Shown here: positions 55,746 to 57,029 of the stretch, one piece after another | Position numbering within the stretch: position 1 is the stretch's first letter | Layout of the letters: each line of letters begins with the position of its first letter | Notes under the pieces: model-generated | Told to the model about the DNA's origin: nothing | The model's input: the letters and a program-made list of their open reading frames with translations, nothing else | Database searches by the model: none | Assembly: GCA_934772525.1 (NCBI GenBank) | Contig: CAKVMI010000002.1 | Location: 6,309 to 70,308, forward strand | Reading direction: 5' to 3' | Source: an uncultured Clostridia bacterium | Lineage (GTDB): Bacteria > Bacillota > Clostridia > Christensenellales > UBA1242 | DNA length: 64,000 nucleotides | Translations under genes and position numbers: made by a program

Positions 55746-55773
55746 AAAAATTGCTCCAAATATTTATATAATT

Positions 55774-55802
55774 AGTATACCAAATTTTACGTATTTTTCC
55801 AA
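55774..55802 (-). promoter_or_regulatory. Promoter for the 55113-55745 gene
   Basis: Minus strand TTGGAA-17 nt-TGgTATACT. Confidence 0.5.
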
Positions 55803-56092
55803 ATAATTTAGTATATAATAAATTTTTCTTACAACAAAGTAGGGAAGTACCGCTTAAATTTCAAACGAATAGTAAGTATATTTTAGTTTATGACAAGTTC
55901 TGCTGTGCTTAAGCTTCTCCGTCTTTATTCCGCTAGAACCATAAATATTAAATTAATGCAAAATAGATATATAAATGAATATGGATATACAAAAAGATTG
56001 GTTTTTATATTGAAAATAAACACCTACGAATGAATTAAAATTGTACCAAATAAATCATATTTAAGTATGCAGTAATAATTAGTACTAAATAT

Positions 56093-56188
56093 AATACCAT
56101 AAGTAATACATTATAATACGCTGTAACACAATACAATACATAGCAATACAGTTTAATACTATAATAAAAGCAATAACACTTTAATACA
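56093..56188. repeat. Helically phased array of AATAC/AACAC pentamers (10-bp register)
   Basis: AATAC at 56105, 56115, 56135, 56145 and 56155. AACAC at 56125 and 56175. Extra AATAC at 56093, 56130 and 56183. Confidence 0.75.
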
Positions 56189-56914
56189 AAGTTATATAAA
56201 ATTTAATTAAGCAAAGGGAATACCCACAAATCTGCATAGTATGGACACTTTAATCTATTCGCCAAATACAGATTTTACGAATTGTTAGAAGTTTTTTTAG
56301 GGTAAATAACGTAATTTTAGAGCAAATTTTAGATTTCAATTTATCCGCACATTTTATAAATTTTTTAACCTCTTTCGTGTATTACAAATTTTTGTTAATT
56401 TTTTACAGCGACTTCATATAAAATTTGTTTCTCAAATAATATATAAAATATAATGTGTTCTGTGTCAAATTGCGACAAATTCTCAAATAGCATTCTGTGT
56501 TGCAATTTTTATCAAATCGTATAATTTTCAATAAAAACTTTTTAATAGTTTATCTCAGTGTATTTCACACAGTAAAAATCTGAAATATTTGGCTATTAAG
56601 ATTTTTTAGTTTTCTCATATTTAATATTTAAGGTTTAAGCGGTCTGTGACAGAATTAAATCAAATTACCATTAATAAAATCATCGAAATTCTGCTACAAA
56701 TTATAAATTCATCCATTAGGTAAATTCCATATAGTCTCTTGTTAGATTTTATGAGATAAAATTAAACCATTTCTAACTGAATCTCCTTAAATTTATCGTA
56801 TAATCATACTGCTTTTTGTAAATATTTAGCCACATATGGTGTAAATCATAACGTCGCACGTGGTTGTTTTTTATCTAATAATTCATTAATAATTTATTAT
56901 TTTATTACTCAGAC

Positions 56915-56953
56915 TGCAAATTTTAAGTACTTCCCCGAAAATTTGCAAATTTT
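56915..56953. promoter_or_regulatory. Palindromic half-site triad around an ACTTCCCCGAAAA core (candidate recombinase/dif-like or operator site)
   Basis: TGCAAATTTT (56915-24) is complementary to AAAATTTGCA (56938-47). AAAATTTGCAAATTTT (56938-53) is a perfect 16-bp palindrome. The 13-nt spacer is AAGTACTTCCCCG. Confidence 0.55.
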
Positions 56954-56994
56954 TAATAAATTATTAACATTTTGCGAAATGTTATAAAATTTAT

Positions 56995-57023
56995 TTTGCT
57001 AAGCAAAAATTTTGTGATATTAT
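56995..57023 (+). promoter_or_regulatory. Promoter abutting the recombinase start (candidate leaderless transcript)
   Basis: TTTGCT-17 nt-TGaTATTAT. The -10 ends 6 nt before ATG 57030, and there is no SD. Confidence 0.4.
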
Positions 57024-57029
57024 TTAGTT

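Follow-up and report, generated by a model that had tools for sequence, protein, structure and literature searches.

Modules in which a Xer recombinase gene is linked to its own dif site are known from streptococci and lactococci (XerS), epsilon-proteobacteria (XerH), archaea (XerA) and Legionellales. Here we analyzed a 64-kb stretch of DNA, referred to as the window throughout, which is a segment of a bacterial chromosome of 32% GC (guanine plus cytosine) with the housekeeping genes LepA, DnaK, PNPase and LexA and two transfer RNA (tRNA) clusters. Its longest intergenic spacer is a gap of 1284 nucleotides (nt) at 55746-57029, which lies directly before a gene for an XerS-like tyrosine recombinase of 352 amino acids (aa). 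We consider it highly probable that this gap holds the chromosome's dif and is the dif region of the terminus in a low-GC, uncultured Clostridia bacterium of Christensenellales type, with the adjacent XerS-like recombinase acting on it. The decisive feature is a core of 26 base pairs (bp) at 56257-56282, which an earlier description of this DNA, here called the original prediction, had not singled out.

In the XerS/difSL system of streptococci and lactococci (Le Bourgeois 2007; Nolivos 2010, PMC2965235; PMC5357621), there is also a single recombinase of about 350 aa (356 aa in XerS and 352 aa here), the recombinase gene is linked to its site at the terminus, and the host is a Firmicute. However, difSL spans 31 bp and has an 11-bp central region between arms that differ in length (PMC5357621), whereas the site described here has a 6-bp centre and near-symmetric arms, and the inner arms read ...CGAAAA / TTTTC... 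in difSL and ...CGCAAAA / TTTTRCG... here. Moreover, difSL abuts xerS, whereas in the window site and gene are 747 nt apart and a separate half-site is found at the promoter. The hosts of XerS/difSL belong to Lactobacillales, while the present one belongs to Clostridia.

The XerH/difH system of Helicobacter and Campylobacter (Carnoy and Roten 2009, PMC2731167; 5JJV/5JK0) has the same site architecture as found here, with AAAA/TTTT inner ends, and the difH consensus TGAAAAC---A-TTTTCAAA holds a variable hexanucleotide between conserved inverted repeats (PMC2731167). As in the window, difH is intergenic, low in GC and found near the skew peak, often a short distance from the recombinase gene, and a single recombinase, XerH (~354-362 aa), belongs to it. 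The differences are that the protein similarity to XerH is weak (1.8e-7, compared with 6e-20 to XerD), that the arm is TGAAAA there and CGYAAAA here, and that the phylum is another one. With its 6-bp centre, near-symmetric arms and AAAA/TTTT inner ends, the site resembles difH more than difSL.

The canonical XerC/XerD-dif system (E. coli; CodV/RipX in B. subtilis) shares with our locus the 6-bp centre, the inverted arms, the location at the terminus and the exploitation by integrase-less phages. It has two different arms and two paralogous recombinases of ~298 aa whose genes are unlinked to dif, whereas near-identical arms and one larger recombinase gene beside the site are present here. Mobile elements that use the host Xer proteins at dif include gokushoviruses (PMC7062461), microvirus-related proviruses of Bacteroidetes (PMC3091885) and filamentous phages of the CTX type; compared with those cases, the host here is a gut Clostridia lineage with an XerS-like and probably single recombinase.

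We found no description of an XerS-like system in Clostridia or Christensenellales in open-access papers and bioRxiv. By analogy, the module can be regarded as a new lineage of the known single-recombinase Xer/dif kind, which would work like XerS/difSL and XerH/difH and would extend the linked modules past the groups named at the outset. We put forward more tentatively, as a possibility somewhat short of even, that it represents a previously undescribed single-recombinase class, in which an XerS-related protein is combined with a symmetric, difH-like site with a 6-bp spacer, the promoter half-site serves a second, conserved purpose (autoregulation or the organisation of the terminus), and gut microviruses and inoviruses find a route into Clostridia. 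An example of a terminus-organising role is given by the XerD-dependent SMC unloading sites in Bacillus.

The dif-like site in the window and its relatives

With the recombinase as query, we obtained 80 related loci from a collection that holds one genome per species. The loci belong to uncultured Clostridia, a large number of which are labelled Christensenella or Christensenellaceae, and are available as windows of 13-20 kb, compared with 64 kb for the genome studied here. Two of them, L001 and L002, encode recombinases with 93% and 88% protein identity to that of the window. The site and the gene beside it consist of the following parts.

56257-56282, + strand: dif-like Xer core, 26 bp (10+6+10), inverted-repeat arms around a central region
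56257-56266, + strand: left arm, ATTCGCCAAA
56267-56272, + strand: central region, TACAGA
56273-56282, + strand: right arm, TTTTACGAAT
56251-56288, + strand: extended dif site, 38 nt, core plus outer arm positions
56213-56230, + strand: box AAAGGGAATACCCACAAA left of dif, kept in L001 and all conspecific strains, not clearly in L002
57030-58088, + strand: XerS-like tyrosine recombinase, 352 aa, from Pfam, NCBIfam and PDB matches

The core is present in a single copy in the window, lies upstream of the recombinase gene at a distance of 747 nt, and shows the two inverted arms of ~10-11 bp and the centre of 6-8 bp that are expected of a dif. It is identical in L001 and L002, where the flanking spacer fails to align. 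In fact, the sole island in the interior of the gap that is kept in these two relatives covers 56213-56303 in L001 and 56256-56296 in L002 (97.6%). A search with a degenerate pattern showed that 64 of the 80 related loci each have one site, ATKCGYAAAA-N6-TTTTRCGMAT, upstream of their xer homologue; in 11 of the remaining 16, the upstream sequence is shorter than 1 kb. Full sites number one per 13-kb related locus, and L032 and L068 add a variant with an 8-nt spacer. A matrix of 16-nt half-sites was built from the dif arms of the 64 loci and run over the window; the two dif arms score 16.6 and 19.9, while the best score elsewhere, the half-site at the promoter aside, is 11.2.

As is expected of a dif, the site is intergenic (61 of the 64 loci), low in GC and tied to no fixed neighbour gene. 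The upstream neighbours vary by lineage, with PNPase and a 210-aa gene in the window, a YgjP-like gene in other lineages and further genes elsewhere, and this variation exists despite the shared ancestry of the loci. The distance between dif and xer has a median of 506 nt over the 64 loci. Column counts over the 64 sites show that conservation reaches six positions past each core arm, which gives the clade consensus taAacT ATKCGYAAAA nACAAc TTTTRCGMAT AgtTA; in the outer arm positions, taAacT...AgtTAn in the clade, the window reads TAATCT...TGTTAG. The arms covary by lineage (ATTCG/CGAAT, ATGCG/CGCAT and TTGCG/CGCAA), and such symmetric covariation is the pattern expected if one protein reads both arms. 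The proposed lineage comprises at least 64 related species-level genomes with the distinct dif consensus taAacT-ATKCGYAAAA-N6-TTTTRCGMAT-AgtTA, which could be used to locate termini and to check assemblies in the group. For the window itself, the assignment would give a function to its largest non-coding stretch and mark the terminus in the genome of an uncultured gut Clostridia bacterium.

The position of the site on the chromosome was examined by strand composition and gene orientation. Cumulative G-C over the window climbs from position 1 to a maximum at 55,099 and falls after it, and this peak is 1.16 kb from the site. The original prediction had proposed to look for a skew extremum at the gap over the whole replicon; within the 64 kb, the gap lies where the curve peaks. 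The genes on the left side are mostly on the + strand, and the gap does lie where this uniform orientation ends, as had been noted. The + strand is therefore leading to the left and lagging to the right, and this is the polarity of a terminus and not of an origin. We further selected 44 related loci in which the site is flanked by 3 kb or more on both sides. GC skew is greater on the left of the site than on the right in 43 of them, with a positive value on the left in 37 and a negative value on the right in 42, and past xer the coding sequence is mainly on the - strand in all 44. In these local windows the site is located at the skew switch, as a dif should be.

Direct evidence of recombination came from other strains of the same species. 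An exact look-up of the 210-aa protein encoded on the left of the gap yielded 10 conspecific contigs, one of which (L146) is 100% identical to window 51168-64000, while the remaining ones are ~98% identical. In the contig L149 (sample SRR25477631, contig 17201), the gap is 6,975 nt long (L149:3026-10000) and holds a complete 5.56-kb Microviridae prophage of the gokushovirus type, inserted at the equivalent of window 56282/56283. The prophage carries genes for a Phage_F capsid, a Chlamy_scaf scaffold, REP_ORF2-G2P replication and Phage_ORF5 together with small open reading frames (ORFs), and no integrase was found among its genes. The host sequence is collinear through the site, is followed by the 5.56 kb of phage DNA, and resumes from the central region. 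The left junction reads ctttaatct ATTCGCCAAA TACAGA TTTTACGAAT tgttaga and then phage, and the right junction reads phage and then ATTCGTAATT TACAGA TTTTACGAAT tgttagaag. The prophage is accordingly flanked by the intact host dif and by a second copy with a phage-derived, degenerate left arm; the two dif-like copies are identical in the central region and the right arm, and the crossover lies inside the 26-bp site. Since an integrase-less microvirus has integrated here between two dif-like copies, site-specific recombination has occurred exactly at this dif in nature.

The junction pattern of L149 is the same as that of the gokushovirus prophages at the E. coli dif, where these phages integrate through XerCD (PMC7062461); Kirchberger and Ochman reported gokushovirus prophages from Enterobacteria only (PMC7062461). 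Two exact-pattern scans and one capsid-protein scan of viral contigs revealed no free form of the L149 phage: neither a close relative of the capsid nor an exact match to the junction sequence turned up there. A second type of element was found through a degenerate-site scan of viral contigs, which returned 52 contigs, a number near chance by a rough estimate, so that only L090 and L115 were used, for which the gene content speaks for a link. L090 is an inovirus-like viral contig of 6.85 kb with a rolling-circle replication protein (phrog_3419) and a Zot-like morphogenesis protein (phrog_197), and it carries the clade dif consensus ATTCGCAAAACACAGCTTTTACGAAT at 5958-5983. In L115 (2394-6656), ORFs of 206, 75, 538 and 75 aa adjoin dif, ~1.3 kb from xer, and they match those of L090 in size and order, the likeness consisting of ORF sizes and order alone. 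Together the two look like a filamentous phage that uses this dif. Integrase-less phages with single-stranded DNA (a microvirus and, apparently, an inovirus-type element) thus lysogenise these bacteria via dif, which bears on the host assignment of gut Microviridae.

Two of the readings offered for the gap by the original prediction are borne out by these results. A terminus/dif region agrees with the conserved site and its xer gene, with the switch in skew and orientation, and with the phage integrated exactly at the site; a recombinase substrate agrees with the Xer core, which is conserved together with the adjacent recombinase gene and at which the phage integrated.

The recombinase and the half-site at its promoter

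The recombinase matches Phage_integrase in Pfam (1.1e-34) and, weakly, Phage_int_SAM_1 (1.8e-5). Its best NCBIfam model is XerS (NF003462; 207.3 bits, E = 2.7e-61, model positions 4-354 of 360), which ranks first of 13 families and is followed by XerA, XerC and XerD with 174, 172 and 158 bits. Among PDB entries XerD is the best match at 6e-20, and XerH (5jjv_A) matches at 1.8e-7. In the alignment with XerD (1a0p), the catalytic R, H-x-x-R and H are kept, while Y is one position out of register with the tyrosine of XerD; a KG(G)N hairpin motif contains a lysine, which the alignment shows offset from that of XerD, and its assignment as the catalytic K is a reading. The protein has the catalytic residues and the SAM-like N-terminal domain that define the Xer subgroup of tyrosine recombinases. 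Gene and site are linked as one module, as in XerS, but the protein does not reach the score of a XerS and the site does not have the XerS architecture of 31 bp, 11-bp centre and unequal arms. The protein is therefore best described, from its sequence, as XerS-like and outside the curated XerS family. No record was returned by exact look-ups of the Xer and LexA proteins encoded in the window.

Two elements precede the gene.

56970-56985, + strand: isolated Xer right-arm half-site, TTTTGCGAAA+TGTTAT, score 18.3 with the half-site matrix
56996-57023, + strand: recombinase promoter-like site (TTGCTA, 16 nt, TG-n-TATTAT), from a consensus scan

The extended -10-like element, TG-a-TATTAT, ends 6 nt ahead of the ATG of xer (57015-57032) and no Shine-Dalgarno sequence is present, so the xer mRNA is probably leaderless. 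The arrangement with TGnTATnAT 6 nt before ATG is kept in L001 (TGGTATCAT-ttagtt-ATG) and in L002 (TGATATCAT-aaaatt-ATG). A further box, AAGTACTTCCCCGAA (56925-56939), is located ~100 nt upstream of xer; it is kept in L001 and in all conspecific strains, including those with a divergent haplotype of the spacer, and loosely kept in L002.

The half-site begins 60 nt ahead of the ATG of xer, and its end lies 11 nt before the -35-like hexamer. Its score ranks third in the window after both dif arms, and the next match outside dif scores 11.2. No match to a second arm paired with it is present. The half-site, TTTTGCGAAATGTTAT, is the right arm of dif repeated together with its flank, the common stretch being TTTTRCGAAWTGTTA. 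The sequence ATTTTGCGAAA does not vary between the window, L001, L002 and the conspecific strains. Among the 38 relatives whose dif is more than 250 nt away, 19 have a half-site at -130 to -20, compared with 0.28 expected from the frequency of half-sites elsewhere in the same loci. The half-site is most likely an operator by which the recombinase regulates its own gene, a function that we infer from its sequence and position. It may have arisen as the arm that remained on the chromosomal side after an old integration at dif; the right-hand junction of the prophage in L149 shows the layout of the half-site. It offers a testable case of the predicted binding of a Xer recombinase outside dif.

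Concerning the mechanism, the neighbouring recombinase is presumably the enzyme that acts at the site, and it presumably acts alone. Because the arms are near-symmetric, one recombinase monomer would most likely occupy each dif arm. The recombinase would then bring both dif copies in a chromosome dimer into synapsis, and strand exchange at the edges of TACAGA would yield monomers. By analogy with XerS and XerH, FtsK at the septum would license the reaction, and the recombinase would thus depend on FtsK.

Several points weigh against the interpretation of the gap as a dif region served by the adjacent recombinase. With regard to the enzyme, the recombinase misses the NCBIfam cut-off for XerS (207 vs 267 bits), XerC and XerD could be the enzymes at the site if the genome encodes them, and the site is 747 nt from the gene, unlike difSL, which is immediately adjacent to xerS. 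With regard to the relatives, 5 of the 80 loci have at least 4 kb of upstream sequence and yet no site match at up to 3 mismatches; the central region is inverted relative to xer in the subgroup with TTGCG arms; and the related loci have a common ancestry and hence are not independent tests. The skew maximum is a local one, given that the window extends just 8-9 kb past the site on the right. Moreover, 6 of the 19 half-sites are in the opposite orientation, which a simple origin as integration relics does not explain, and a pentamer array to the left of the site has no explanation beyond slippage.

The spacers and the rival explanations

Apart from the elements described above, the gap and its left border contain the following features.

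55113-55745, - strand: 210-aa ORF of no known function, the divergent left neighbour of the gap
55774-55802, - strand: promoter-like site of the 210-aa gene (TTGGAA, 17 nt, TG-n-TATACT), from a consensus scan
55826-56212, no strand: left spacer, from the promoter region of the 210-aa gene to the dif island, not conserved beyond the species
56093-56187, + strand: AATAC cluster with starts at 56093, 56105, 56115, 56130, 56135, 56145, 56155 and 56183, from 5-mer clustering
56283-56969, no strand: right spacer from dif to the promoter half-site, unconstrained and variable within the species
56341-56349, + strand: TTATCCGCA, a DnaA-box look-alike with one mismatch, judged to be chance

The original prediction rightly described the gap as exceptionally long, since it is 2.4 times the length of the next intergenic spacer in the window (the runners-up have 527, 454 and 424 nt), and as devoid of ORFs of at least 60 aa, the longest having 47 aa (55890-56033, + strand). 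It was mistaken in calling the gap extremely AT-rich: its GC content is 23.6%, and the mean of the other intergenic DNA in the window is 23.7%. A scan for tRNA and transfer-messenger RNA genes found none inside the gap. When the gap was compared with its relatives, as had been proposed, the dif island and the short boxes and promoter ends proved to be conserved and the rest did not. On the side of the 210-aa gene, the region 55467-55825 aligns with L001 at 74%. In a global alignment with L001 the right spacer has 39% identical columns, which we judged to be near the level of unrelated AT-rich DNA.

The right spacer also varies within the species. The window strain is without ~93 nt near 56440 that other conspecific strains have, and L148 and L152 carry a far more divergent version of ~56400-56920, while their flanking genes are ~98% identical. 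The two spacer haplotypes and the 93-nt deletion suggest recombination or replacement beside dif. In our interpretation, the remaining ~1.1 kb of the gap, short conserved boxes and promoter-like sites aside, is non-functional spacer, and the simplest account of the length of the gap is that DNA has repeatedly been inserted, deleted and replaced around a target site of mobile elements.

Of the structures reported earlier inside this spacer, the phased array of AATAC pentamers is real. It has 8 copies in 95 nt, compared with 1.78 per kb window-wide, and no other 5-mer cluster in the 64 kb is as significant (Poisson 1.4e-11); the spacing between several of the copies is exactly 10 nt. It is not found in L001, whereas all conspecific strains have it, with substitutions in the motif and an unchanged copy number. 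Most likely it is a decayed tandem repeat with a unit of ~10 nt, that is, neutral slippage DNA. Tandem arrays near dif in the relatives are short (2-4 copies), and some have AATAC-like units (L006, L063 and L067).

Four other explanations of the gap were weighed. The one that survives best supposes that the spacer is an unrecognisable remnant of one or more dif-integrated elements or of a decayed host gene, and that the half-site is a mere old junction and not an operator; we hold this possible but rather unlikely. In its favour, elements integrate here today, namely the L149 microvirus and the inovirus-type genes beside dif in L115, and in L002 a 1112-aa ORF and additional half-sites separate dif from xer. 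The promoter half-site has the right arm and its flank in common with dif, in the layout of the right junction of L149, and dif lies at most 250 nt from xer in 26 of the 64 relatives, which suggests an ancestral adjacency. However, no relic of a protein could be recognised: tblastn searches of the gap with 3,911 ORFs (1,976 of related loci and 1,935 of viral loci) had no significant hit when the number of queries was allowed for, Pfam gave nothing on the eight longest stop-free frames of the gap, and blastn in 'distant' mode against phage and plasmid collections found no match to it. The decayed locus that had been suggested was accordingly not recovered. Moreover, the half-site is kept amid a randomised spacer and is enriched ~70-fold at the promoter across lineages, which argues for selection over a passive relic. 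This explanation is also largely compatible with a dif acted on by the adjacent recombinase, as it concerns the origin of the spacer only.

A gene for a large AT-rich non-coding RNA, or genes for several small RNAs, in which the site would be an RNA hairpin or terminator, are very unlikely. The length of the gap, its lack of ORFs and a T-run 9 nt past the dif palindrome would suit such genes. The - strand of 56283-56969 also folds somewhat better than its shuffled versions (z = -2.3, 20 shuffles), but the three other folds gave z = -1.4 for the right spacer and +2.0 and +1.7 for the left spacer, which thus folds worse than shuffles, so that neither spacer has a convincing folding signal on either strand. 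A search of the whole window with the 4227 covariance models of Rfam at gathering thresholds gave no match in the gap, and a search of 55400-57300 at E up to 10 gave three matches, all with E >5 and none relevant. The relative of 93% identity aligns with the gap at the dif island and at both promoter-proximal ends and nowhere else. Furthermore, the arms covary as a DNA palindrome, outer positions included, and a phage recombined precisely there. In view of the Rfam result, the conservation and the folds, the large non-coding RNA proposed in the original prediction finds no support.

Still less probable is a programmed DNA switch that inverts or excises the 0.7 kb between the full site and the half-site and does not resolve dimers. 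A tyrosine recombinase does adjoin repeats of its own arm, 713 nt apart, and an inverted repeat of 24 nt brackets the site. Flanking inverted repeats had been reported earlier; the best one (55930-55953/56619-56642) has 21 of 24 positions complementary, but its significance is marginal, as 4 of 200 first-order Markov randomisations of the gap equal it. The 10 conspecific contigs are all collinear with the window and show neither an inverted nor an excised form, their differences being small indels and one prophage; the second site is one-armed; and the full site is single-copy, located at the skew switch and conserved order-wide, which is the signature of a dif and not that of a switch restricted to one lineage. 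Finally, a replication origin or another DnaA-controlled region has a negligible probability, because the two DnaA-box look-alikes of the gap (56341 and 56826, with 0.4 expected) lie in AT-rich DNA but neither is perfect and the window has 20 matches with at most one mismatch, none perfect and without a cluster, which puts the near-DnaA-box noted at 56341 at chance level, while the + strand is G-rich on the left and C-rich on the right with genes converging on the site, the polarity of a terminus, and dnaA and dnaN are not among the ten genes examined beside the gap.

Side observations in related loci and in the window

Some of the related loci have structures of their own near dif. In the subgroup with TTGCG...CGCAA arms (L018, L028, L036, L057, L067, L072, L074 and others), dif is 83-200 nt from xer and an extra single arm, TTTTGCGCAATC-like, is found at the near-constant distance of 116-126 nt upstream of dif. 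In a group of ~57% protein identity (L003, L007-L009, L011, L014-L017, L019, L020, L025 and L026), a conserved island is located between dif and xer, ~110-300 nt downstream of dif. It consists of a long perfect hairpin (e.g. ACTCTGTCTCAGC-CG TTTTAAAA CGCGCTGAGACAGAGT), a T-rich run and a second small inverted repeat (ATGA...TCAT), and it is not present in the window's own lineage.

In L002 (682-5786), dif and xer are separated by 4.4 kb, in which the 1112-aa ORF shows similarity to sigma-70 region 4 and the two extra half-sites lie near 2134 and 2198. An ORF of 293 aa abuts the left side of dif in the same locus; it was considered as a replication protein and rejected, as it had no Pfam or PHROG match and no similarity to the replication protein of L090. 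Four loci (L007, L028, L056 and L057) carry a Clostridia-type xer/dif, yet their records say Alistipes finegoldii or Acidiphilium sp., and these labels look like binning or labelling errors.

In the window, the second most significant 5-mer cluster is TCATC, with 6 copies in 95 nt at 58806-58900, inside a 201-aa ORF (58304-58909, - strand). This segment also has the highest lag-15 self-similarity, and it is probably a short coding repeat in an unknown protein between xer and lexA.

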